Below are positions 27,732 through 58,899 of a stretch of 64,000 nucleotides of DNA, one piece after another. The notes below the pieces were generated by a model. That model was not told where the DNA came from and did not search any database. It saw nothing but the letters and a program-made list of their open reading frames with translations. Position 1 is the stretch's first letter; each line of letters opens with the position of its first letter. The translations under genes and the position numbers were made by a program. The stretch is from positions 1 to 64,000 of the IMG/VR virus record IMGVR_UViG_3300028399_000005; one strand, given 5' to 3'. The stretch is from a virus.

Positions 27732-27852
27732 GGGGCAGTAGCTCAGCCTGGGAGAGCGCGCGAGTAAAGCCCCCTTGCGCGCGCCACTCTGCGCACAGCA
27801 GATTGAGGGGGCCTCAGTGTAGTCGCGGGTTCAAATCCCGCCTGCTCCACCA
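27732..27852 (+). tRNA. tRNA-Ala-like RNA with a greatly expanded anticodon arm (121 nt)
   Basis: Acceptor GGGGCAG/CTGCTCC with G3.U70, A73 and encoded CCA; D arm GCTC/GAGC; T arm GCGGG-TTCAAAT-CCCGC; upstream TATA and downstream T-run. Confidence 0.85.
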
Positions 27853-33074: not shown

Positions 33075-34394
33075 CTACAAGTAGCCGAGCTGTTTTTCGG
33101 CGGAGAACAAGCCGAACACCCGTTTTCTGTGTTTCTGGCGCAGACCGAGCATCTTCCGAGCGAAGTCTTGGAGCGAGAACCCAGCGTTGGCTTCCTTCTC
33201 CGCGTCGCCGAGAAAATCGAACAAGATCTTGCTAAACGGCGACCCTTCCACGGCGAGAGCGAACGCTTTCCGTTGCTCATCGGCGGGGGCTTGGTTCTTC
33301 CGATTAACGCCTTCCTTGAACGCTTGCACCGCCTTCTCGTACATTACGCCGACAAGCGTCTCAACCTCGGCGTATCGTTGTTTCACGGCGTCGCCGAAGT
33401 TCGTGTGCACGATCTCGTAGAAATCTCTGCTCCCCTCGGCGAGGTCTCGCAGAATCGCCTCGAACATCTCGAACCCGCTCTGCTGGCGCACTCTCGAGAG
33501 CAAGAAGAACTCTTCCTTCTTGATTTTTAAACGGTTTCCGTTCGCGTCCCTCGCAACGAACCCCTCTTCGTCTTTCTCTAAGTCTCCGAGCAACTCGAGG
33601 GCGTAGTTGATGTTGTCGGCTGGTATGCGTCTCGGTCTCAGTGCGCCGATCATGCCAGCGACGCCGTCGAGTGTGTTTGCCTTCGTGATCTCCGCCCTGT
33701 AAGACTCGTTCTGGCCCGCAACGCGCATCGTGAGCAACGCCGTTTGGTGCTTGTCGTAGCGAGTAACGAGGCTGTGGCGACTCCAGTGCGGGAACATGAC
33801 CTCGAAAGCGTAGGTGAATCGCTTGCTCAAGAGATCGTCGAGCTGGTCAAGGCTGACGTCGAGCGCCGTCAAGAAACCGTCGACGAAATCGATGTCGGCG
33901 GGGATCTTGTTCCGCGTGGCGAAAACCCAATCACCACAGTAGTAGAAAACGTTGAGTAATGTACCATCGAACTTCGTCTCGAGCCACGCCCGCTCCCAAT
34001 CGAAGTCGACGTGGCGCCCTTCTTCCTCGTTGTAATTGAAGAACCGAGGGAAGGCGAGGGCTACATAGTTGCCCTTGGCGTCCACGACGAGCCCGCGCAT
34101 GACTTGGAACAGGGGTTCTCGGCGCACGAGCCTCGTCAGCCCAAGATTCGTGTTGAGTTTCATGGTCTGGCGGTAGTTGAGCAAGAACAAGTCCTTCTCG
34201 GGGTGTTGCCGAACGTTGATGCCAAAGATGAAAGCATCGAGATAGTCCTCGGCGTAGTATCTGCGCCCCTCGTGGTAGTACATGTTGCCGTCCCGCTCGT
34301 CGAACACCGAGACCTTGCGCTTGGGGAAGGCTTTCTTCTCGACGAGGCGGGCGAGCATCTCGTACTGCAACATTTCTTCGATCTTGTCTGTCAT
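33075..34394 (-). CDS. T4 Rnl1-like RNA ligase
   Basis: AFPRFFNYNEE, motif I KFDG, EGFV, KIK. Confidence 0.88.
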   Translation of the reverse strand: MTDKIEEMLQYEMLARLVEKKAFPKRKVSVFDERDGNMYYHEGRRYYAEDYLDAFIFGINVRQHPEKDLFLLNYRQTMKLNTNLGLTRLVRREPLFQVMRGLVVDAKGNYVALAFPRFFNYNEEEGRHVDFDWERAWLETKFDGTLLNVFYYCGDWVFATRNKIPADIDFVDGFLTALDVSLDQLDDLLSKRFTYAFEVMFPHWSRHSLVTRYDKHQTALLTMRVAGQNESYRAEITKANTLDGVAGMIGALRPRRIPADNINYALELLGDLEKDEEGFVARDANGNRLKIKKEEFFLLSRVRQQSGFEMFEAILRDLAEGSRDFYEIVHTNFGDAVKQRYAEVETLVGVMYEKAVQAFKEGVNRKNQAPADEQRKAFALAVEGSPFSKILFDFLGDAEKEANAGFSLQDFARKMLGLRQKHRKRVFGLFSAEKQLGYL

Positions 34395-35289: not shown

Positions 35290-35358
35290 GGATAAGAAAA
35301 GAAACAACTAAAAATAAAAAACAAGCGAGGCGTTATAACGCCTGCTAAAAAGAGCACA

Positions 35359-36228
35359 CTACTTCTTCGCGTTTTTGACGATTCGCATGAGGTTGTCCTC
35401 GGTCTTGTGCGGATCGTAGGCGACGCGCACGAGCAAAACCCTATTGTTCCGCCATGTTTTTGGAACGACGACGTGCGCCCCGCTCGAGAATTTCTTGACC
35501 TCGGCTTCCTTGATCTCGATGTCGGGGAGCATCTTGTGCCCCCGTTCCTTGAAGTACTTGCGGATCTTCTCATCAACGCCGTCCCGAATGATTGAGGAAA
35601 GCCAGATCCGCACCGCTCGCTCCGTCTCATAGATCGCGTAGAACGCAATGTCGAGGTCGAACACGTCCGTGTAGGCGATCGCTCTCACGATAGGGAGTGA
35701 GTATCGCTTGCTAAGGATGAGCAACGTCATGTCTCGGTAGTTCTTGTCGCCAGAGAATTCCACATAGTCCGCTATCATGCGCTCCAATACTGTGTTCGCA
35801 ATGTTCGGGAAAACGTCGAACCCTATCTCCTTGATGATCTTTTCCACTTTTTCGTAGGCGTGGCGCCTGAAGTCCTCGTAGTACCTCGGCGAGTCCTCGA
35901 GCTTGTTGAGGATCGCAGAGACGAGATCGACCCCCCACGTTTGCAAGAAATTGCCCTCTCCTTCGACGACCATGACTATGTTGCCGTCTTTGTCATAGAC
36001 TTCGAGTTCTCGGCGCCAAGCGTCGAACTTGATAGTTTTTGCATAGACTGGGAGAGTGTATTGCTCGATGAAGTCGTCTTGATCGGCTTCGTCCTCGATA
36101 GTTTCGAGGACGTCCTCAAGCGCCTCGAGGTATATTTTATTGGGGATGTGGAATTTCCTTCCAGACAATTTAGAGTCTCCGAGTCGCATCATGCCTCGCT
36201 TTAGCCATCCCTTCGGATTCTCCATCAT
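35359..36228 (-). CDS. hypothetical protein with C-terminal DUF2080/AbrB-like motif
   Basis: EVKKFSSGAHVVVPKTW...VLLV; GAGGTGA RBS before 36228. Confidence 0.65.
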   Translation of the reverse strand: MMENPKGWLKRGMMRLGDSKLSGRKFHIPNKIYLEALEDVLETIEDEADQDDFIEQYTLPVYAKTIKFDAWRRELEVYDKDGNIVMVVEGEGNFLQTWGVDLVSAILNKLEDSPRYYEDFRRHAYEKVEKIIKEIGFDVFPNIANTVLERMIADYVEFSGDKNYRDMTLLILSKRYSLPIVRAIAYTDVFDLDIAFYAIYETERAVRIWLSSIIRDGVDEKIRKYFKERGHKMLPDIEIKEAEVKKFSSGAHVVVPKTWRNNRVLLVRVAYDPHKTEDNLMRIVKNAKK

Positions 36229-41862: not shown

Positions 41863-43842
41863 ATGAACGAACAAGACGAATCATTCGACCCAGAGAAAGT
41901 AGTAGCGAAAATTCTCGATCTTGCGCCGAAAACAGTCCTCATCATGGGAAAGATCGGCGAGGACGAAAGAAAGGCGCTTGAGCGCCACATCAAGGAAGAA
42001 TTCAAGAAGAGCGCCGAAAAGGAGAACGCCCACGCAGAACTACTCGGTTTCGCGGACTACTACGGACGGCACCAAAAATACGAAAAAACGAAGAAAGCAT
42101 TCGGCGACCGAATCGTCGAAGCCCTTGACAGAATCGCAACAAACCAAATAGTCGACATTCTCGAAGTGTACCGCCCATTGTTGCTCTCGAAATATTACAA
42201 CTTTACGCACTTGAACAAAAAAATAGACGGGAGGATCGCAGACATTCTCGTCCCCACGAATTTCGAGCGAGTCTTTCTATCTACACTGTTCGTCGGCGAA
42301 ATAACGCACTTGGCAACAGGCGCCGAGCTCGTGGGGAGTATTTCCCGTCCAGACCTCGAATTCAAGGCGAAAGAAAGCGATTTCGACGTTCGGGCGTTTT
42401 CCACGCACGAACTCACGTTCGCAACGGCGGTCGGTTTCACGCTCGAAAAAGTGTTCAAGCGTTTGCTCGCACGCGTTACGCAAACGGCGTATGAGAACGA
42501 CGTGCCAAACGTCGTGGCGACCGTTGATCGGTTCGTAGCGTCGATTAAAGGACGAGAACTCTTGCTCGAGCTCGTCGAAGACCCTGGCTTCGACTTGCAA
42601 GTGCGGGAATGGGAGAGCCTCGGAATGCTCGATGAGTCAGTCATCGATCCTCGAGAAGCCGTCCGCGAGCACGCCCTTCAAGAACCGACGGCGTCTTTCC
42701 GAACGTTGTTCTTGCCCTTCGACTCAAGGTTTTTCTCCCGCGAGAACAAACAACGCATGCTCGACCTCTTCGAGCATGATAAAGACGGTGCTGTCCTCGT
42801 CGGCGATAGCTACGTGGCCTTGCGCGTGCTTGCGGATGACGCTACCATTAACAAGAGCTTCGTCCAGACCATTTTCATCGATCCGCCGTTCAACAAGCCG
42901 AACGAGGCGAACTACAAGTATAGCGTCAAGATCGGCGACGACGTCTGGATTGCCATGCTCCGCTCAAGGCTTCGGCTCGCAAGGGAGCTCTTGCACGAGA
43001 CGGGCTCGATCTTCGTTCGATGCGACTATGAGGGCTCTCACTACGTCCACCTTCTTCTCGACGAGATTTTCGGCAAGAAGAATTTCCGCAACGAAATCGT
43101 CGTCAAGCGCTCGAACCGCATCAAGAGCCCGACGTCTCGCTTCTTGTCGTGGCACGACGTTGTGTTCTTCTATGCGAAAAGAGCGGACAGAGCTTTTTTC
43201 AAAGAGCTTGTCGTCGATGAAGAGGCACGCAATGGCTGGCGGGGAATGGACATGCCAGGCGATTCTTACGAGGTCGTCCCCTCGGGGCTCGAGTCATTAT
43301 TCGAGCCGTGGATGCTTGAGAAAGACTCTTATGAACAGACAGTTACTCGTGCGAGGCTGTTCTTCGGAAAACCTATCATGCCCCCGCCAGGGCGCAGATT
43401 CCCTTCCCAAGCAAAAATCAACGAAGAGATCGAGAAGGGCAATATTCGCTTTTCTCGCTCGGGGCGCCCGTTGATCCGCAAGCGTGGCTACAAGGTGCTT
43501 ACCGACGATTGGACGGACATTTTCGGCTACAAGAACCGCTTCGGGTTCACGACGGAGAACAGCGAGGAACTGCTACGACGCGTGATCATGGCAACTTCGA
43601 AGGAAGAGGACGTTGTGCTCGACTTTTTCGCTGGTAGCGGGACGACCCTTGCCGTGGCGCACAAGCTCGGGCGAAAATGGGTCGGCGTAGAAATCAACGA
43701 CCACGCTTTCGAGGTGCTCATCCCCCGCATGAAGAAAGTGCTGTTCTACGACGAAGGAGAGATCAGCTCGTTGAAAGAAGTCAGAGAAAAATACAACAAA
43801 CGCCGAGCTGGCGGGGTCTTCTACTATTACTCTTATGAATAG
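41863..43842 (+). CDS. large adenine methyltransferase (type III Mod-like, beta class)
   Basis: IDPPFN, DEIFGKKNFRNEI, VLDFFAGSGTT; no Res gene adjacent. Confidence 0.9.
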   Translation: MNEQDESFDPEKVVAKILDLAPKTVLIMGKIGEDERKALERHIKEEFKKSAEKENAHAELLGFADYYGRHQKYEKTKKAFGDRIVEALDRIATNQIVDILEVYRPLLLSKYYNFTHLNKKIDGRIADILVPTNFERVFLSTLFVGEITHLATGAELVGSISRPDLEFKAKESDFDVRAFSTHELTFATAVGFTLEKVFKRLLARVTQTAYENDVPNVVATVDRFVASIKGRELLLELVEDPGFDLQVREWESLGMLDESVIDPREAVREHALQEPTASFRTLFLPFDSRFFSRENKQRMLDLFEHDKDGAVLVGDSYVALRVLADDATINKSFVQTIFIDPPFNKPNEANYKYSVKIGDDVWIAMLRSRLRLARELLHETGSIFVRCDYEGSHYVHLLLDEIFGKKNFRNEIVVKRSNRIKSPTSRFLSWHDVVFFYAKRADRAFFKELVVDEEARNGWRGMDMPGDSYEVVPSGLESLFEPWMLEKDSYEQTVTRARLFFGKPIMPPPGRRFPSQAKINEEIEKGNIRFSRSGRPLIRKRGYKVLTDDWTDIFGYKNRFGFTTENSEELLRRVIMATSKEEDVVLDFFAGSGTTLAVAHKLGRKWVGVEINDHAFEVLIPRMKKVLFYDEGEISSLKEVREKYNKRRAGGVFYYYSYE

Positions 43843-44600
43843 CGCTTTTTGGGTTTGCCGACCACTCGGTCTCGCCATAAAAACAGCCCGCTCGTTTCCT
43901 TGCTCCCGAAGTGGTTGAACTCGCTGTCGAAAAACGTCGAGAGACGGGCGTTCTCCCATCCACCGTTGATTCTGGCGAGCTTTTCATAGACGGACGGCAC
44001 GGGGACATCGTGCTCGACAATGTAGGCCCAGACGTCTTTCGCCGTCCACTCGGCGATCGGGAACGCCGTGTCCGTGAACCCGCTCTTTTTCGGTTCTATC
44101 CACGTTCCCGTGCGTCGCTTCGCCTCGGCGATCCGCGCTCGGCGCTTCTGGGACTCTTGGGATCGTAGACCGAGGAAACAGACGTCCCAGCCGTGGCGTT
44201 TCACGGCTTCCGACAAACGGGGGAAAAACGGCGATTTAGCGATGTGTGATTCTCTTGCGGACGGTTTATCGCCCCCAGGCCTTTTCTCGTAACTATGGCG
44301 AGAAAAAGGGGCAATCTGGTCAATTCCTTGCAAGATCTCTTTCTCGATCCAACGGGGGATCAACCATTCGCCGTAGTCCCAGTGGCGAACCCAGACGTCC
44401 CTCTTGTACTGGACGACGAGATGGAGCATCGCCATGGAGTCCTTCCCGCCAGAGACGGCGACATAGGGGTTTTGATAGCTCGCCAAGACTCGGCGAATGA
44501 ACGAGCGGGACGTGGCTACCTTGCGCCGATACTCCGACGTGTTCGTGTGTAGGAGAAAGCCAGCGATGACGGGTTTCGGCATGAATTTGGACGGTTTCAT
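43833..44600 (-). CDS. cysH: CysH/PAPS-reductase-like protein of a type IV-B CRISPR locus
   Basis: PP-loop VSGGKDS, GLRSQES, PIAEWTAKDVWAY; ATG at 44600 overlaps the csf3 stop. Confidence 0.88.
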   Translation of the reverse strand: MKPSKFMPKPVIAGFLLHTNTSEYRRKVATSRSFIRRVLASYQNPYVAVSGGKDSMAMLHLVVQYKRDVWVRHWDYGEWLIPRWIEKEILQGIDQIAPFSRHSYEKRPGGDKPSARESHIAKSPFFPRLSEAVKRHGWDVCFLGLRSQESQKRRARIAEAKRRTGTWIEPKKSGFTDTAFPIAEWTAKDVWAYIVEHDVPVPSVYEKLARINGGWENARLSTFFDSEFNHFGSKETSGLFLWRDRVVGKPKKRYS

Positions 44601-45391
44601 TGCGCAAGACCTATTTTTTGCTTTACTTGGGCGGAGAGCTCGCACTTTGCGCCGACGGGGACGCACGCGTCGATGTTTCGTCTGTCCCAGTACGGCGGTT
44701 TCCAGGCGAGGTAGGCGAAGTCGTCGTATTCGTCGCAGTAGCGCGTCGGGATGGGTCGTAGCGCTTCTTTTGTTTTCGGGTTCCAGAAGCTCGCCTTGTC
44801 GGGGTTTGGCTTGATCTCGACATGGCTGACTTCGCCGAAGCCGTAGGCGGTCTTTTTCCCGAGCCCCGTAACGTGTGCTATGAGCGATAGCAAGGAGTAG
44901 GGCTTCGCCTCGACGAAGACGTCGGCGTATCGGGCGGAAATGTAGGGGATTCTGATCGAGTAGTTCTTGAACGTCCCAGAGCCGAGGCTGATCTTGCTCT
45001 TCTTCCCGCCGATCTTGTGGGCGTCTGGCTCGTGGAAGCGTTTGTAAACATACTCGATGTTCGCCCGCTCCTCGACGTTGATGAGCTTCCCGTCGGCGTC
45101 CTTGAATAGGATGACAGAGGAGTGATAGAAGTACGTTTGGCGGATTGGCATGGGCAACGCTCGGACGCGCTTTCCGAGGGGGTCGTTCGAGGGGAGCATG
45201 TAGTAGTCTTGCCCGAGGGTGAGGCGGAGCAACATGTGCGCCACGAGCCCGTCGAAGTTGATCCACGGGTGCGTGATCATGACGGGCGCTTTCAAGTGGA
45301 ACCGCACGAGGACGTGCGCCCACTCTTCGCCTTTGAGCGTGGCGTAGTACTCCGTCGGCGTGTCCGCGAGCAAGTATTGCCGTAGGAACAT
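44597..45391 (-). CDS. csf3: type IV Cas5-like subunit
   Basis: FDGLVA, Gly loop GLGKKTAYGFG, RPIP, PPYW. Confidence 0.85.
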   Translation of the reverse strand: MFLRQYLLADTPTEYYATLKGEEWAHVLVRFHLKAPVMITHPWINFDGLVAHMLLRLTLGQDYYMLPSNDPLGKRVRALPMPIRQTYFYHSSVILFKDADGKLINVEERANIEYVYKRFHEPDAHKIGGKKSKISLGSGTFKNYSIRIPYISARYADVFVEAKPYSLLSLIAHVTGLGKKTAYGFGEVSHVEIKPNPDKASFWNPKTKEALRPIPTRYCDEYDDFAYLAWKPPYWDRRNIDACVPVGAKCELSAQVKQKIGLAQ

Positions 45392-45395
45392 AGCG

Positions 45396-46286
45396 TCATC
45401 CCTTCTTCTTGAACGATGAGAAATCGATTTTCTGGGCATCAATCGCCTGCAAGAGCGCCAAGATGTCGTCTTGATTTTCTTCGACGAATCTTAGATACGT
45501 TTCTTCTTTTCCGAGTGCGCTCAAGGCAGTCTTGTCGTAGTCTGGACGCAACGCGCCGAGCCCGATGCTTGACTTCCCGCCGACGTAGCAATTGTTCTCC
45601 CAGATTCGGAACGCTCTTCGGAAGAACGCTTCTTCGACGGGCGTGGGGTCTTCGAGGACGAAAGCGTGCGTCAGCCTCGTGCCAGGGATCAAGACCTCGT
45701 ATTCGACGAGCATTTGTTGTGCTTGTTCGCCTTCGTCCCGCTCGGCTCTGAGCTCGTCTTTGCGGGTCTGGTAAGTGTCGCTCATGAGCTCGTGGAAACT
45801 GAATTCGGCGCCCCTAACCGTTGAAGGGTCGAACGTGATCCCTTCGAGCTCCTTGCAGATCGGGAAAGCGTTCATGACCTTGAGCTTTCCCGTGAACGCT
45901 TGGTTGAGGAAGGACGAGCCGAAAACACTAATGGGGGGCAAGAGGTATCGGATGGTCTTCCTCGCTTCGAGGTTGAGCGTCCCGCTGTCCTTCGAGGACA
46001 CTTTCTCGAGGTTCCCGCCCGAGTAGAAAAAGTGGTAGAGTCTGGCGGTCTCGAATCGGTGTCTTTGGCCCTCTCTGTAGCCCACGAGGTCGAGGAAGTC
46101 CTTCATGACGAGGCGTCGCAGGCGCCCTCTGATTGCATTTCCGCTGATGTAGGGCACTTCTTGGATCCCCTTGTTCGTGATCATTTCGATTCTTCGGAAC
46201 CCGATCGTGGATCCCGTTTTTTCGTTCCCGCCGTGGTGGACGGGGGAAAGAGCTGTCAATATTCCGCTGATTTTAATTGTCTTCAT
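45396..46286 (-). CDS. csf2: type IV Cas7-like backbone subunit
   Basis: ALSPVHHG, VPYISGNAIRGRLRR, SVFG, GGKSSIGLG. Confidence 0.9.
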   Translation of the reverse strand: MKTIKISGILTALSPVHHGGNEKTGSTIGFRRIEMITNKGIQEVPYISGNAIRGRLRRLVMKDFLDLVGYREGQRHRFETARLYHFFYSGGNLEKVSSKDSGTLNLEARKTIRYLLPPISVFGSSFLNQAFTGKLKVMNAFPICKELEGITFDPSTVRGAEFSFHELMSDTYQTRKDELRAERDEGEQAQQMLVEYEVLIPGTRLTHAFVLEDPTPVEEAFFRRAFRIWENNCYVGGKSSIGLGALRPDYDKTALSALGKEETYLRFVEENQDDILALLQAIDAQKIDFSSFKKKG

Positions 46287-52523: not shown

Positions 52524-53676
52524 ATGGGAATCCGATTCATTCCAAAAAAAGAATGTGATGTGGGTTTAGCTCGAAATGGAGTATTGGACTTCGGTAAAAA
52601 GAAACTTCCTACTCCCTTTCTTTGGTTTGGCTTATCAAATCGAGAATCTGTAGTTTTTCAAAAAACAGTATTTGAAAGTGCGATGATCGAAGGAATCATG
52701 GCAAATGCATACGACCTTATGTTTCAAGATAGGACTGGCTCTCGAACTGAAATGGTCAAAGAATTGTCTCGCTCAGGGCTCGTAGTAAAATGTGATAGCG
52801 GGGGTTACCAAATACTTAAGAGAGGGAAAAAAATCGATCGATCCAAAGTTCTGAGGTTTCAAGAAGATTTGAATTGCGATTTGATGGTTCAACTCGATTA
52901 TCCCATATTAGGTTCTGATCCTCGAGAACTTAAGAAAAAACATATTGATAAAACCCTCAATAATCTGGAATATGCTTTGAAAACAGCTAATCGTCCAGAA
53001 AGAATTGTTCCAACTATTCATGGACACGATTCCGAGTTATTGCGTTATCAAGCAAAAAAAAATTACAGATCTCCTTGGCGAAACCCCGCCTATTATTAGT
53101 GTTGGTTCTTTGGTTCCTCTACTTTTTAATTCAAAAGGAGCAAAAGGGGTTGGAGGTAAAGCAAAAGCTTTGGAAGTTATAAGGATTGTTCGAAAACTTT
53201 TTCCAAAAACAATGATTCATGCTCTCGGTATTGGGGGCGCTCTTACATATCTCGCTATATATTTTGGCGCAGATAGTTTCGATAACAACGGTTGGATACA
53301 AAAAACTGGTTTCGGCGTAATTCAAGTTCCTGGATCATCGGATCGGTTTCTTGGAACCCCGCCGAATGGCAGAAAGAAAATTGATACTGACGAAATAGCC
53401 TATCATAGATGGCTTGAATGTGTGTGCCCAGCTTGTAGGAGTTCTTCTAATAGAAGTGTATTCATTGGACGAGATGAGAGCGCAAGGCTAAATCGAGGAA
53501 TACATAACGCCTATACATTTCAAGCGGAAATTTGGAGAGTAAGGAGATATATCCATGAAGGCCAATATATCAACTTTATAAAAGAGAGAATGAAAAATTC
53601 TATATATTTGCGGATTTTACAAGAGGAATTAAATCGTAACGATCATGAAAAAATATTTAACGATGTGTGGTTTTAG
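52524..53676 (+). pseudogene. tRNA-guanine transglycosylase (TGT/DpdA) family gene split by a frameshift in an A9 run
   Basis: TP, CDSGGYQ, QLDYP in ORF1; HALG, DSFD, CxCxxC...HN in ORF2; removing one A at 53054-53062 joins them. Confidence 0.8.
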
Positions 53677-54827: not shown

Positions 54828-56285
54828 ATGACGAAAAATAAGAGCAAACGAAAAAAAGTAGTCAAAAACACGGAGACGCAAAACACTCGCACGTATTCGG
54901 ACGTGCGCCGAATCAACGACGAGGAGATGCGGAAGATCCTCGAGGGCGTCGGGATGACGCCCCGCCACGAGGACGAGTGGTTGCGCGTGGCACGGCGCCA
55001 CGAGATATTGAACGAGGGCGTAGAGCTTTTCATGAGTACTTCGGACATGAGTCCGAAGATCGCCGTTACGGCGACGCTCATGAGCCTCGCCTCGATGACC
55101 CGTCGAGAGCAACGCGTCGTCGTCATGCAAGGGTCGCCACATCTCAACCTCTGGGCGACCGTGATCGGGATCTCGGGATGGGCTCGGAAGACGACCGCCG
55201 AGAAGATCTTGACGAAGCTCGTGAAAGAAGCGGAAGGGGAGTTTCTCCCCGCAAATTTCACGCCAGAAGCCATCATCTCGCACCTCTCGAAGAAGGCGCA
55301 AGGGCTTATCGTGAAAGACGAGATCTCGGGGCTCATAAAGGCGTTCCGCAAAGACCACAACGCGGATCTTCCCGAGGTGCTGAGCGAGATCTACGAGTGC
55401 AAGGATCGCGTCGAGCGCCACACGATCAGCCGAGGGCTCGAAGTCGTCGAGAACGCCTACGTGAACTGGTGGGGCGGGACAGCCGTGCACTACATCCGCC
55501 TGTTGCGGGACGATGACTGGAACCAAGGGTTCATGCATCGTTGGATCTATTGCCTCGACATCGACCTCATGCAGAAGAAAGTGCGCCCGCTGGTTTTCAC
55601 GTCCGCCGAGCTCGACACCCGCATTCAAGACTTTGCGCAGACCTTGAAGAAGGTGCGGGAAGTCCCCGTCGAGACGCTTATCCCCGCCGAGAAGACGAAG
55701 AAGTTCAAGACGCTCGAGCAAGAAAGCTTCGAAAAAGCGAAGCAGTACTATTCTCGGGACATTTTCGACATTGCGCACCCGTACTTTGCCAGGGTGCCGA
55801 TCACGACGCTCAAGATAGCGGGGATCTTGCAAGTAGCAGACCTCGCTGGGAAGGGGAGCACGCTCGAACAGTTCGTCATCACGCCCGAGATCATGGACTT
55901 GGCGAGCGACCTCATGCGCTTGTACTTGCAAGAATTCGAAGCCCTCGTGGCGATCTTCAAGCGGACGGCGATCAGCGCACCGCCGACGACGGATCGGCGC
56001 AACCTCGGGTACTTCATCGAGACGCTCCGAAGCCTTGGGGGCGTTGCGAGGCAACAAGAGCTCCTCACGGCGCTCGGTTTTTCCTATGCGAAGTACCAGA
56101 AGCTCCTCGACACGCTCGTCGAGCGGGGGGACGTGGACGTCGGAAGGGTCGCAATTTCGGATCAGAAAGGAGCACCGCCCCGCCTCATCTGGCTCCGTTC
56201 CTATGCCTCGAACCTCGGCGACGCCGAGCAACTGTGGGTCGAGACGAAGGAGCTCCGAGACAAGGCATTGCGGGTCAAGAGTTGA
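54828..56285 (+). CDS. DUF3987-like AAA+ protein with C-terminal winged helix, putative replicative helicase
   Basis: NLWATVIGISGWARKTT, FTPEA, KDE, GFMHRW. Confidence 0.65.
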   Translation: MTKNKSKRKKVVKNTETQNTRTYSDVRRINDEEMRKILEGVGMTPRHEDEWLRVARRHEILNEGVELFMSTSDMSPKIAVTATLMSLASMTRREQRVVVMQGSPHLNLWATVIGISGWARKTTAEKILTKLVKEAEGEFLPANFTPEAIISHLSKKAQGLIVKDEISGLIKAFRKDHNADLPEVLSEIYECKDRVERHTISRGLEVVENAYVNWWGGTAVHYIRLLRDDDWNQGFMHRWIYCLDIDLMQKKVRPLVFTSAELDTRIQDFAQTLKKVREVPVETLIPAEKTKKFKTLEQESFEKAKQYYSRDIFDIAHPYFARVPITTLKIAGILQVADLAGKGSTLEQFVITPEIMDLASDLMRLYLQEFEALVAIFKRTAISAPPTTDRRNLGYFIETLRSLGGVARQQELLTALGFSYAKYQKLLDTLVERGDVDVGRVAISDQKGAPPRLIWLRSYASNLGDAEQLWVETKELRDKALRVKS

Positions 56286-56338
56286 TTCGTTACAACGCCC
56301 CGCTTTCTTTTTATATTATTGCTAATCGTTTTTCAATC

Positions 56339-57265
56339 ATGGAACACTTGGTTTTTCATGCGGAAGAAAAAGACGGAAACGTCCGTTACCGATCAACGAA
56401 ACGAAACGACGTCGGGTCTCTCCGCACCACGGAAATGCGGAACACAGTCCTCGTTGGCTCGTTCACCCAGACGGCGATTCCGATCGAGTGTCTTGAGCTA
56501 ACGCCTCTTATTTCGGAACGATTGCATTATCACTTGGAATTGTGTAATTGCGAAGAGATGGCGCCAGAATATGGGCCACCTTATATTCTCGAACGAAACT
56601 ACAGCGAGGGCTACGTCAAAGCAATGTGGCGGGACGATTTTTGCGTAAACTGCAAAGCGGTCTTTCATTCGTTGGAAGACATCAAAGACCCGCTCTATGG
56701 TAATCCTTCGTTGCTCTTCGTGATCATCTACTACGATCCCGATTCGAAGAAGACCGAGCTCGTCATCACGCGCCAATATTTCCGTTATTTGGCGTTCGAC
56801 ATCATGCGAAGAAAGAACCTTGCGAGAGACCAGCTAAAAGTCGTCATGGCGACGAGATGGTTCTACGTCAAGAAACCGATCCTCGAACTTGAATTTCTCT
56901 TCGACGGCAACATTGAGAAAGACTTGTTCGACTACGGCGGAGACGATATGTTCGATGACCTCACAAAGAAGAAGTTCGAGGAAAGCACGTTTTCCTACGT
57001 GCGCTACGTCGGAAAGCGACCGATGGGGCAAACCGAGACGTTGGAACTGTCATTCCAAGAGTTATTAGACGAAATAAAAAAGTGCGACCTTGGAACGATG
57101 TTTTATCACAGGGAGTTTTTCTTGCATTACGGCGGGCAAAAAATCCCCGCAAGGAAAACATTTGCATACGTCCCCGTTTCTGCGTACTTGAACGCAAAAG
57201 AGCTCGAAGCGGGCTATCGCTTTACGAAAAGACCGCGTAGAGCAGTTTTGTCTGTCGTCCCTTGA
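56339..57265 (+). CDS. hypothetical protein
   Basis: True start at ATG 56339 after class II box 56288 and TATA. Confidence 0.7.
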   Translation: MEHLVFHAEEKDGNVRYRSTKRNDVGSLRTTEMRNTVLVGSFTQTAIPIECLELTPLISERLHYHLELCNCEEMAPEYGPPYILERNYSEGYVKAMWRDDFCVNCKAVFHSLEDIKDPLYGNPSLLFVIIYYDPDSKKTELVITRQYFRYLAFDIMRRKNLARDQLKVVMATRWFYVKKPILELEFLFDGNIEKDLFDYGGDDMFDDLTKKKFEESTFSYVRYVGKRPMGQTETLELSFQELLDEIKKCDLGTMFYHREFFLHYGGQKIPARKTFAYVPVSAYLNAKELEAGYRFTKRPRRAVLSVVP

Positions 57266-57325
57266 CTCCCTTGATGGTTAAAGTGAGTAAAAAGTCGGTT
57301 TAGTAAAAGCAAATAATTAAAAAAG

Positions 57326-57450
57326 TGGCGGTGCTCGCGAGCCTCGCACTCGCTCTCCTTTTCGGGCAGAGCCACCTTCTGCCCTATCCGCTTCCCCCGC
57401 GTGGTGGCTTGGGCGGGTTTCACGGAAAGGAGCGGGCTATTCCCAGCACC
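57326..57450 (-). ncRNA. tRNA-like RNA (125 nt) with CCA end and a kissing-loop domain in place of the anticodon arm
   Basis: GGTGCT/AGCACC acceptor, G discriminator, CCA, then T-run; T arm GCGAG-TGCGAGG-CTCGC; inner stems pair cleanly. Confidence 0.7.
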
Positions 57451-57589
57451 ATGTTTATGTATTATCCCCCTCTATTATATGTTTTTCGGTATTTAAAAAT
57501 TTTATGCTCCATTTGTCTCATTATAACGCTGAGCAATCATTTAATATGGCGGTACCGAGGCAAGAGACAAACGATTCGAGGTTCTGTGA

Positions 57590-57754
57590 ATGAAAACAAC
57601 AGTCATAAAAGAAATCCCAGACCCTTGCCCGATTACGGGAATAAACTGCTTTACGAAGAGAATTGCAAGCTCAGCGGACATATACATCGACAGGGGCTGT
57701 CCAGTTCTGGCTGACGACAAAAACTGTGATTACGTCATCCGAGAAGACAAATAG
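57590..57754 (+). CDS. 54-aa Cys-containing peptide
   Basis: Manual translation MKTTVIKEIPDPCPITGINC...; class II-like box at 57520. Confidence 0.45.
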   Translation: MKTTVIKEIPDPCPITGINCFTKRIASSADIYIDRGCPVLADDKNCDYVIREDK

Positions 57755-57855
57755 TTCCCCATAGTGTTTTCCTTTTTGTTATAACAAAAACCGTTTCTCG
57801 TTATAACGGGAAATAATCATTTAATAACTCGTATTCAACATTTGGATTGATCCAC

Positions 57856-58899
57856 ATGACAAGCGAAGGAGACTTTTTTGCCATGGTAGAAAAGAAGAGC
57901 GAATCTAAAAAGGAGCCCGCCAAGGCACCCGCCGAGGCAAACCAAGCGCAACCCCCCGCTTCGGCGGAACCAAAGCCCGCGGTCGCTCCGCAGACGACAG
58001 CACAAGCAGAGCTCTCGCTCTCGCAAGAGCTCATGGAAGACTTGCGTAACAAAGCAATAGAATTCGGCATTGATTTCACGGAAGTCGTGAAAATCGCCCA
58101 GTCAATCCTTGCAGACCCAGCGCTACAAGCACAAAGCCCCAAGCTCCGAGACCGCCTCGTGGCTGTGAACGTCAAAGTGCGCCTGCAACAAAAGCAAAAA
58201 ACAAAGCAAATACCATTCTTGCTAATCGGGAAGGACAAGAACTACTGGAAATCGAGCGGGAACATCTCTGGGAACGCCTACGGCATTTTTACAATCGAAG
58301 AGAACGGCGAGACCTCGCACTACCTCGGCAGAATCTCGCTCAACGGCGAGGACGTCGAGAAACTCAACAAAGCCATCCTACTCGCACGGTACACCCCCTA
58401 CGTCGAAATCCCCGAGAAGCGGGACAACGGGACGAACTTCCTCGTGGCGTTCTCAAACGAGCTGACCGATTTCGAAAATCCAGAGGTCTTGTCCATCTCT
58501 TATCCAGACTTGCTTGAGCGAGCCCTCGGGATCAGCCTCGCCTACAAGATCGAGGGCGAGGGCGGGTGCGGTCTCTCCGCCCTAAACGACAAGGGCTACC
58601 CGCTCCCATACGACCTCAAGGCGCTCTTAGTCATTGCTCAAAGCCCCCGCAAGATCGCTTCCACGCCCGACGACCTAAGCGTGAAAATCTCTACCCATGT
58701 GGCGACCGCCTTCTCGCTCGAGGGCGACGAGCAGATCCAACTATGGATTCCAGACTTCCCAGAGTTCTTGAACTACGCACCCCTCAAGGAGCCATTGCTC
58801 GTGCTCGGCACTATCGCCGAGAGGCGCAAGAAGAACCAGTACAGCGACGAGAACTACGTGATGAACGTCATCGCCGTCGTCCCACTGAGCGACTATTAG
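57856..58899 (+). CDS. putative single-stranded DNA-binding protein (OB-fold-like)
   Basis: Beta-rich C-terminal region, disordered N-terminus, upstream of a Sak4-like ATPase; function inferred. Confidence 0.5.
   Translation: MTSEGDFFAMVEKKSESKKEPAKAPAEANQAQPPASAEPKPAVAPQTTAQAELSLSQELMEDLRNKAIEFGIDFTEVVKIAQSILADPALQAQSPKLRDRLVAVNVKVRLQQKQKTKQIPFLLIGKDKNYWKSSGNISGNAYGIFTIEENGETSHYLGRISLNGEDVEKLNKAILLARYTPYVEIPEKRDNGTNFLVAFSNELTDFENPEVLSISYPDLLERALGISLAYKIEGEGGCGLSALNDKGYPLPYDLKALLVIAQSPRKIASTPDDLSVKISTHVATAFSLEGDEQIQLWIPDFPEFLNYAPLKEPLLVLGTIAERRKKNQYSDENYVMNVIAVVPLSDY

Follow-up and report, generated by a model that had tools for sequence, protein, structure and literature searches.

On the minus strand of a 64,000-nt stretch of viral DNA (hereafter the window; positions 1 to 64,000 of the 83,942-bp IMG/VR virus record IMGVR_UViG_3300028399_000005), positions 57326-57450 very probably hold a genuine RNA gene. 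The predicted product, a 125-nt RNA, appears to be a selected, structured orphan and a new variant within the theme of tRNA-like viral RNAs, in which the ends resemble those of a transfer RNA (tRNA) and the centre is a three-way junction with two mutually complementary loops. We give an even chance to the reading in which it is a small RNA of the virus that takes no part in decoding and has the frame of a tRNA, its tRNA-like ends and loop-locked junction domain acting as a decoy or scaffold. A sequence-only reading of the window had described this region as a tRNA mimic with kissing hairpins; the observation was confirmed and its interpretation partly supported.

All the stems and loops listed in that reading are present, and folding with ViennaRNA recovers them. 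The RNA position is 57451 minus the window coordinate, and all elements are on the minus strand. An acceptor-like stem pairs GGUGCU (positions 1-6, 57445-57450) with AGCACC (116-121, 57330-57335) at a mean pair probability of 0.98, and a single unpaired G122 and an encoded CCA (123-125) complete the 3' end (57326-57329). The 5' strand is followed by a D-like mini-hairpin, GGG-AAUAG-CCC (7-17, 57434-57444), without U8, a 4-bp D stem or G18G19. In the place of the anticodon stem there is a spacer helix, CUCCUU (19-24, 57427-57432) with AAGGAG (91-96, 57355-57360), which is also readable as 7 bp, CUCCUUU (19-25) with AAAGGAG (90-96), and leads to the three-way junction. Arm A (25-64, 57387-57426) is made, in the minimum free energy (MFE) fold, of an outer helix UCCGU (25-29)/GCGGA (60-64), a GAAA/GGAA internal loop, an inner helix CCCGC (34-38)/GCGGG (51-55) and a 12-nt loop, CCAAGCCACCAC, with mean pair probabilities of 0.91 and 0.97; only the inner of these 5-bp helices had been noticed before. 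Arm B (67-87, 57364-57384) is a single helix, GGGCAGA (67-73)/UCUGCCC (81-87), with a mean pair probability of 0.94 and a 7-nt loop, AGGUGGC. The T-like arm, GCGAG-UGCGAGG-CUCGC (98-114, 57337-57353), has its loop closed by a G-C pair and carries U, C, G and A at loop positions 1, 3, 4 and 5.

The loops of arms A and B contain GCCACC (43-48, 57403-57408) and GGUGGC (75-80, 57371-57376), which are exact complements. The earlier description of the hairpins as kissing holds as far as this complementarity goes, an intramolecular kiss being only one of its two possible uses, with pairing between molecules equally allowed by the data. Watson-Crick runs of 6 bp between the two loops occurred in 1.0% of loop shuffles and in 0.5% of random loops with the composition of this RNA, in a post hoc test, and the GCCACC/GGUGGC duplex amounts to -11.9 kcal/mol. 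We lean slightly towards loop-loop pairing forming in one mode or the other. The pentamer GCCAC occurs in loop A, again at the 3' end of the RNA as G-CCA-C (57325-57329), and a third time in the apical loop of a second tRNA-like RNA of this virus (around 27781-27785), described below. The RNA's own GCCA end could in turn pair with loop B (..UGGC), much as the end of a tRNA matches a T-box bulge, though this may be a coincidence.

The minus strand folds with an MFE of -58.4 kcal/mol (z -2.76), matched by 1 of 200 shuffles, against -54.2 kcal/mol (z -1.22) and 26 of 200 shuffles for the plus strand, in agreement with a strand-specific structured RNA as first proposed. The 37 pairs of the model are all canonical, one of them being a G.U pair that alone distinguishes the strands, and the seven helices have mean pair probabilities of 0.91-0.98 at 37 C.

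A second strain is represented in run X2 of a separate study, one contig of which spans 57173-57687; changes were counted by hand from the alignment. The RNA (57326-57450) differs at one of its 125 nt: a T>C change at 57410, which is A41>G in loop A, 2 nt upstream of GCCACC. The 3' spacer (57266-57325), 60 nt long, has 11 changes and an insertion of 9 nt, and the end of the converging open reading frame (ORF; 57214-57247, plus strand) has 8 changes in 34 nt, 6 of them at third codon positions, a bias indicating that the strains are well diverged. On the other side, 1 change was counted in the 79 nt of 57451-57529 and 8 in the 117 nt of 57530-57646. The contrast between the RNA and the 3' spacer is significant (Fisher test, p = 1.9e-5), as is that between the RNA and the listed flanks taken together, with 28 changes over 308 nt (p = 0.001), and the 3' boundary of conservation falls exactly at the T run that follows the RNA. 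The alignment shows the putative RNA and its promoter region to be under strong constraint, loops and junctions included, that is, under strong purifying selection. With A41>G the loop-loop helix could grow to 8 contiguous pairs (G41-C82) if stem B gave up its two top pairs; the change is compatible with pairing between the loop segments but is a single event, considered post hoc. Two overlapping ORFs, 57325-57714 (plus strand) and 57214-57423 (minus strand), were considered as genes and rejected on the codon positions of the strain changes and on the lack of Pfam matches for the small ORFs examined around the RNA; in the plus-strand frame the changes are mostly at positions 1 and 2, so that frame is not a constrained gene.

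Two TATA-like boxes precede the RNA on its strand. The nearer one, ATATAATA (57480-57473), is centred about 26 nt before G1, which is the usual spacing of archaeal promoters, and its position suggests that transcription may start at the first base of the fold; in that case an RNase P cut would be unnecessary, and the tRNA-like maturation first proposed is to that extent unsupported. A start set by the farther one, TTTTTAAATA (57495-57486), would leave a leader of 14 nt. The strains do not differ within 57467-57529, which covers both boxes. Downstream there is a C (57325) followed by T6 (57324-57319), a likely oligo-T terminator; the CCA end and the T run had both been reported, with the C between them omitted. 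In the second strain the 9-nt insertion splits the T run, leaving T5 directly after CCAC. The ending CCA-C-T6/7 is common to this RNA and to the tRNA-like gene at 27732-27852, and among the 26 sites of the 83.9-kb record where CCA precedes a T run, these two are the only ones with a G+C content of at least 0.64 and an MFE of -55 or lower. A further site of CCA before a T run (35325-35454) was dismissed, since it lies inside a coding ORF. From these signals we infer that the 125-nt RNA would be transcribed independently.

By its sequence, only the top half of the RNA is tRNA-like when set against the standard tRNA numbering and consensus. There, a 5'/3' helix is stacked on a 5-bp hairpin, giving 12 layers if G7 and G115 stack: the acceptor has 6 bp plus this G7/G115 layer, its third pair is U-A, and it is followed by G and CCA. 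The T stem has 5 bp and is closed by G-C, and the loop UGCGAGG holds 4 of 5 consensus positions (54, 56, 57 and 58), with a G in the place of Psi55. U8, a D arm with G18G19, Psi55 and the anticodon arm are missing. The D-like hairpin abuts the acceptor strand, with linker nucleotides 8-9 absent and a single G in its loop, and the anticodon place is taken by the helix into the junction, with no 7-nt loop. The absence of an anticodon loop, reported earlier, is thus seen in both sequence and fold, and the RNA is predicted to be non-decoding and unable to read codons.

As had been foreseen, tRNA finders miss it. ARAGORN called no tRNA or transfer-messenger RNA (tmRNA) gene in the window, and with introns allowed at a 90% threshold it made 15 calls, none at the RNA. 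Searched with Rfam at gathering score, only the tRNA-like gene 27732-27849 was found, the same interval being the only match of the tRNA model (RF00005) at E <=10 over the whole record. At E <=10 on 801 nt and 137 nt around the RNA there was no match to tRNA, tmRNA, signal recognition particle (SRP), 5S or prohead RNA (pRNA) families, and the RNA was assigned to no Rfam family. We therefore reject a decoding tRNA, missed by both programs and lacking the anticodon arm, as well as membership of the SRP Alu, pRNA, 5S or tmRNA classes. The analogy to the SRP Alu domain drawn in the sequence-only reading was not borne out, the likeness being only topological. A copy of a Thermococci tRNA acceptor was also discarded: none of 133 genomes holds a tRNA with such an acceptor stem.

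The second RNA (27732-27852, plus strand) is a tRNA-Ala-like gene with an RF00005 score of 42.2 bits and a 59-nt insert. It has a canonical tRNA-Ala acceptor with G3.U70, A73, encoded CCA and textbook D and T arms; these arms are identical to those of archaeal tRNAs at 17 of 17 genome loci (archaeal genomes only), 5 of them tRNA-Ala(CGC) of Thermococci. In place of an anticodon arm it has a 6-bp helix, a UAAA bulge, an 8-bp G/C helix and, at the apex, a hairpin in which a UGC triplet is buried; no clean bulge-helix-bulge was found in it. Both RNAs have their own promoter-like region, the CCA-C-T run, a 6-7 bp helix carrying a larger distal domain and the GCCAC motif in an apical loop. The textbook acceptor, D and T arms and the Ala anticodon triplet UGC are present only in the sibling, and the inserts have no sequence similarity. 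The two share a design and not a sequence. Outside this virus, two contigs of Candidatus Wolframiiraptor allenii (L011 and L017) contain tRNA-Ala genes, found by the D/T-arm pattern, with extra sequence right after the D arm, likely non-canonical introns.

No homologue of the 125-nt RNA was found. By blastn against GenBank phages and PLSDB plasmids there were only chance matches of 22-37 nt. Degenerate RNA patterns gave no hit in IMG/VR, JGI metagenome contigs or GTDB genome contigs; these patterns require exact lengths and at least 14 fixed bases, so that diverged or indel-bearing relatives are missed. In the virus record, a covariance model built on the single sequence scored the RNA at 161 bits and recovered nothing else, the runner-up being a 15.8-bit match inside coding DNA. 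At E <=1 this model found nothing in 5 archaeal genomes, 133 Thermococci and 40 genomes of the class of genome G004, and in 151 genomes of the class of G003 there was one chance-level match (20 bits, 59 nt). No homologue was thus found in 324 archaeal genomes, a one-sequence model reaching close relatives only. The suggestion of an undescribed RNA class is not supported so far, as no collection searched contains a second member. The virus itself has few kin in the databases: for the capsid protein there are just two relatives (98% and 37%) among 5.8 billion clusters, and it was not found in the 133 Thermococci or in GenBank phages, the protein downstream of the RNA has a single relative (97%), and IMG/VR contains no relative of the flanking ORF, the capsid protein or a 3-sequence capsid alignment.

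We suggest that the most likely role of the RNA is that of a decoy or scaffold. The acceptor-like stem and the G/G layer would stack on the T-like arm and end in the unpaired G and the encoded CCA, so that the top half would copy the part of a tRNA held by end-processing and CCA-handling enzymes and by many tRNA-binding proteins. This minihelix with its GCCA end would provide defined, nuclease-resistant ends and access to tRNA-binding partners; whether at least one tRNA-handling protein reads it is, in our judgement, evenly balanced. The forked domain, fixed by the 6-bp loop-loop helix, would be a rigid and sequence-constrained working platform. An intramolecular kiss of the unequal arms needs a bend in arm A, which its purine-rich 4x4 loop might supply. 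During infection, the whole could then bind a protein of the host or the virus, as a decoy or scaffold in the shape of a tRNA.

Several points weigh against this proposal. The Rfam tRNA model does not match the RNA even at E <=10, and the D-like hairpin has little in common with a D arm, the seventh layer is G/G and position 2 of the T loop is a G, so tRNA enzymes may reject the molecule. Since no homologue was found, no covariation test was possible and no base pair has that support; since no stem is altered in the second strain, covariation is also absent there. The comparison involves one strain only, and it shows conservation, not structure. Moreover, the conserved block is larger than the RNA and includes about 80 nt upstream (the single change in 57451-57529), so that a recent recombination tract could mimic part of the conservation signal. 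Among the listed sequencing runs that hold this stretch, none is recorded as an RNA run. At 80 C the nearest-neighbour model loses the D-like, spacer and T helices and keeps the acceptor and arm B; in a hyperthermophile host the fold would therefore need tertiary contacts, modification or protein. Finally, neither a tRNA-processing enzyme nor an obvious protein partner is encoded beside the RNA, the neighbours being replication genes and orphans.

Alternatively, the complementary loops of different molecules could join hand in hand, in the manner of the pRNA of phage phi29, so that dimers or rings of a self-assembling RNA dock on a viral machine, for instance the portal and packaging motor or the replisome, with the terminal helix outward. 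The size of about 120 nt, the three-way junction with its mutually complementary loops and the closing 5'/3' helix all agree with this, and the inequality of the arms (about 14 layers against 7 bp) would make an intramolecular coaxial kiss geometrically strained. The position of the gene among replication genes, about 3 kb from a head-tail adaptor gene, is also in its favour. However, there is no match at E <=10 to the pRNA family, RF00044, the CCA end and the T-like arm are foreign to pRNA, and an 84-kb genome with a clamp loader, a family-B DNA polymerase and a weak large-terminase match is unlike the small phi29-like phages. We consider self-assembly rather unlikely. To a broader version we give a similarly small chance: the two RNAs of this virus would represent an undescribed kind of archaeal-virus RNA, with a tRNA end, chargeable or CCA-bearing, and a self-complementary fork, whose dimers or rings dock on a viral machine or soak up, multivalently, a tRNA-binding defence or translation factor.

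A further possibility is that the 125-nt RNA is a chargeable tRNA-like molecule without an anticodon. Together with the Ala-type sibling (G3.U70, A73) it would be charged by an anticodon-independent synthetase and, in charged or uncharged form, would feed or block some step that depends on tRNA, for instance by baiting a defence nuclease or toxin aimed at tRNAs. In the 125-nt RNA, a T-like arm and the 5'/3' helix that stacks on it do lead to an encoded one-base discriminator and CCA, and the acceptor of the sibling is canonical for tRNA-Ala, with G3.U70, its D and T arms being those of Thermococci tRNA-Ala. In addition, G73 with a long extra arm resembles serine-type identity, which is anticodon-independent and depends on these two features, and the virus encodes an Rnl1-type RNA ligase, a type that in T4 repairs cleaved tRNA. 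On the other hand, the acceptor stem occurs in the tRNAs of none of the 133 Thermococci genomes, arm B leaves the junction 6 bp from the core and not at the variable-arm position, and the D-like hairpin and G/G layer are unlike those of every tRNA. Besides, a decoy without an anticodon loop is no substrate for anticodon nucleases. We consider charging unlikely.

The region could also contain no RNA gene at all, and be either a DNA-level element, for instance a hairpin close to an origin or control region within the replication module, or a chance G+C-rich island. It lies in a 580-bp intergenic region by primase/helicase-like and clamp-loader genes, with repeated GTTATAAC-containing motifs near, and the strands differ by a single G.U pair. 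Yet the significance of the fold is strand-asymmetric, TATA-like boxes stand before it and a T run after the encoded CCA, with the same ending at a bona fide tRNA-like gene, and conservation stops exactly at that T run. The repeated 31-nt motif is a promoter-like box of the neighbours and lies outside the RNA. We regard this explanation as quite improbable. Least probable is a precursor from which one or more archaeal introns are excised to give an ordinary tRNA: archaeal tRNA genes can hold introns, some non-canonical, the two Wolframiiraptor tRNA-Ala genes are longer at such places and the sibling has its 59-nt insert, but none of 2,926 single-excision products (one segment removed, start 21-100, length 10-89; double excisions fall outside this count) was called a tRNA by ARAGORN, no bulge-helix-bulge arrangement is compatible with the stable helices, the two similar arrangements with a full 4-bp centre clash with helices of pair probability >0.9 and yield no tRNA, and no intron can restore a D arm to a D-like hairpin without G18G19. 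Removal of an intron had been named beforehand as what would overturn the first reading, which therefore withstood this check; in the same trial 884 of 2,628 products of the sibling were called tRNA, with inconsistent anticodons.

The virus record, from a hydrothermal-vent metagenome, is of the linear class and estimated to be 77% complete. It encodes head proteins (a portal fused to a Mu-F-like domain, a prohead protease and a head-tail adaptor), a 534-aa large-terminase-like protein with a weak match to the N-terminal domain, and replication and nuclease proteins (a family-B DNA polymerase, PolB; two RFC/clamp-loader-like ATPases; ERCC4+HhH; ThyX; and a Cas4-like nuclease). The RFC-like clamp loader, ERCC4+HhH and PolB proteins are of archaeal style and indicate an archaeal-type virus; from its gene content, we take it to be an archaeal-style tailed virus. 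Its host is probably a heat-loving archaeon, and the arms of the tRNA-Ala-like RNA at 27732-27852 together with the G+C content, the only basis for a narrower assignment, suggest Thermococci. The record also contains the Rnl1-type RNA ligase (PHROG 562, E 9e-27), a TGT-like C-terminal fragment that may be a DNA 7-deazaguanine transglycosylase, and a RAMP protein adjoining a PAPS-reductase-like protein, listed jointly at 33075-34394 (minus), 53005-53676 (plus) and 43833-46286 (minus).

The 580-bp gap that contains the RNA gene has an orphan ORF on one side, which ends at 57265 and lies downstream of the DUF3987 primase/helicase-like gene (54828-56285); on the other side a small ORF rich in Cys (57590-57754) precedes an orphan and a Sak4-like ATPase. 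On the plus strand, 54828-57265 contains two long ORFs that overlap in different frames, the DUF3987 gene and 55541-57265, which has a TTG start and for which no homologues were found. The third-position bias of the strain changes indicates that the 3' end of the latter is coding, and its true start is probably after 56285. A 31-nt box (TCTCRTTATAACG...AATCATTTAATA) occurs twice on the plus strand, at 57516-57546 and 57796-57826, the copies being 81% alike; they precede the Cys-rich 54-aa ORF and an orphan gene starting near 57856, respectively, and probably represent the virus's own promoter or regulator box. This box of the neighbouring protein genes differs from the TATA-like boxes of the RNA and does not overlap the RNA. 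Palindromes of GTTATAAC are grouped at 57778-57813. In the second strain, 98 nt of 57687-57786, between the small ORF and the next promoter box, are swapped for 106 unrelated letters.

Non-coding RNAs of archaeal viruses are almost unexplored, and, judging from titles and the openings of abstracts, the literature searched contains no account of such an RNA from an archaeal virus. The nearest parallels outside this virus are from other systems. In engineered tRNA scaffolds, the anticodon stem-loop is swapped for a foreign RNA and the host recognises the rest (PMC3753655); the vtRNAs (viral tRNAs) of gammaherpesvirus 68 are described as tRNA-like and not aminoacylated (PMC4337559). They share with the 125-nt RNA a small RNA encoded by a virus or vector and a tRNA-derived top half, with the anticodon arm replaced in the scaffold and no decoding in the vtRNA. 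Unlike our RNA, with its 3-bp D mini-hairpin and unmatched tRNA model, they keep canonical D and T arms. In the TMERs (tRNA-miRNA-encoded RNAs), the miRNA hairpins come after the tRNA and not inside it, and the hosts of scaffolds and TMERs are eukaryotes or E. coli, not archaea.

As for the bacterial tmRNA, its tRNA-like domain keeps the acceptor, T arm and CCA, with a reduced D arm and the anticodon arm replaced by a long helix leading to further domains. It resembles the 125-nt RNA in the retained acceptor, T arm and CCA, the reduced D arm and the long helix in the anticodon-arm place. The latter differs in having no G3.U70, no tag reading frame and no pseudoknot ring, and the ARAGORN search for tmRNA gave none; archaea are not known to have tmRNA. 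In the lysine riboswitch, neighbouring junction arms are also tied by loop-loop pairing, and this L2-L3 lock depends on a kink-turn in the longer arm (PMC3082890). The GAAA/GGAA loop of our longer arm A could provide a bend, but it is a symmetric 4x4 loop and not a standard kink-turn. The standard motif consists of a 3-nt bulge and tandem G.A pairs. The riboswitch is, besides, a cis-acting ligand sensor in a leader, whereas the 125-nt RNA would be a free small RNA.

The phi29 pRNA, whose loops pair between molecules (PMC5066667), is alike in architecture only: it too is the product of a tailed virus, measures about 120 nt and has a three-way junction with two loops that complement each other, closed by a 5'/3' helix (PMC5066667). 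Its loops pair through about 2-4 bp, against 6 bp here, it has no T-like arm or CCA end, and it comes from small protein-primed Bacillus phages. If the RNA described here self-assembles, it would be the first packaging-RNA-like molecule outside these phages. It is unusually well defined, with gene-like flanks, all but one nucleotide kept between diverged strains, and a tRNA end joined to a loop-locked junction, and it offers a small, concrete and possibly thermostable object for structural work. If tRNA enzymes do handle it, archaeal viruses would share the trick of herpesviruses and RNA engineers, in which the body of a tRNA serves as a passport for another RNA.

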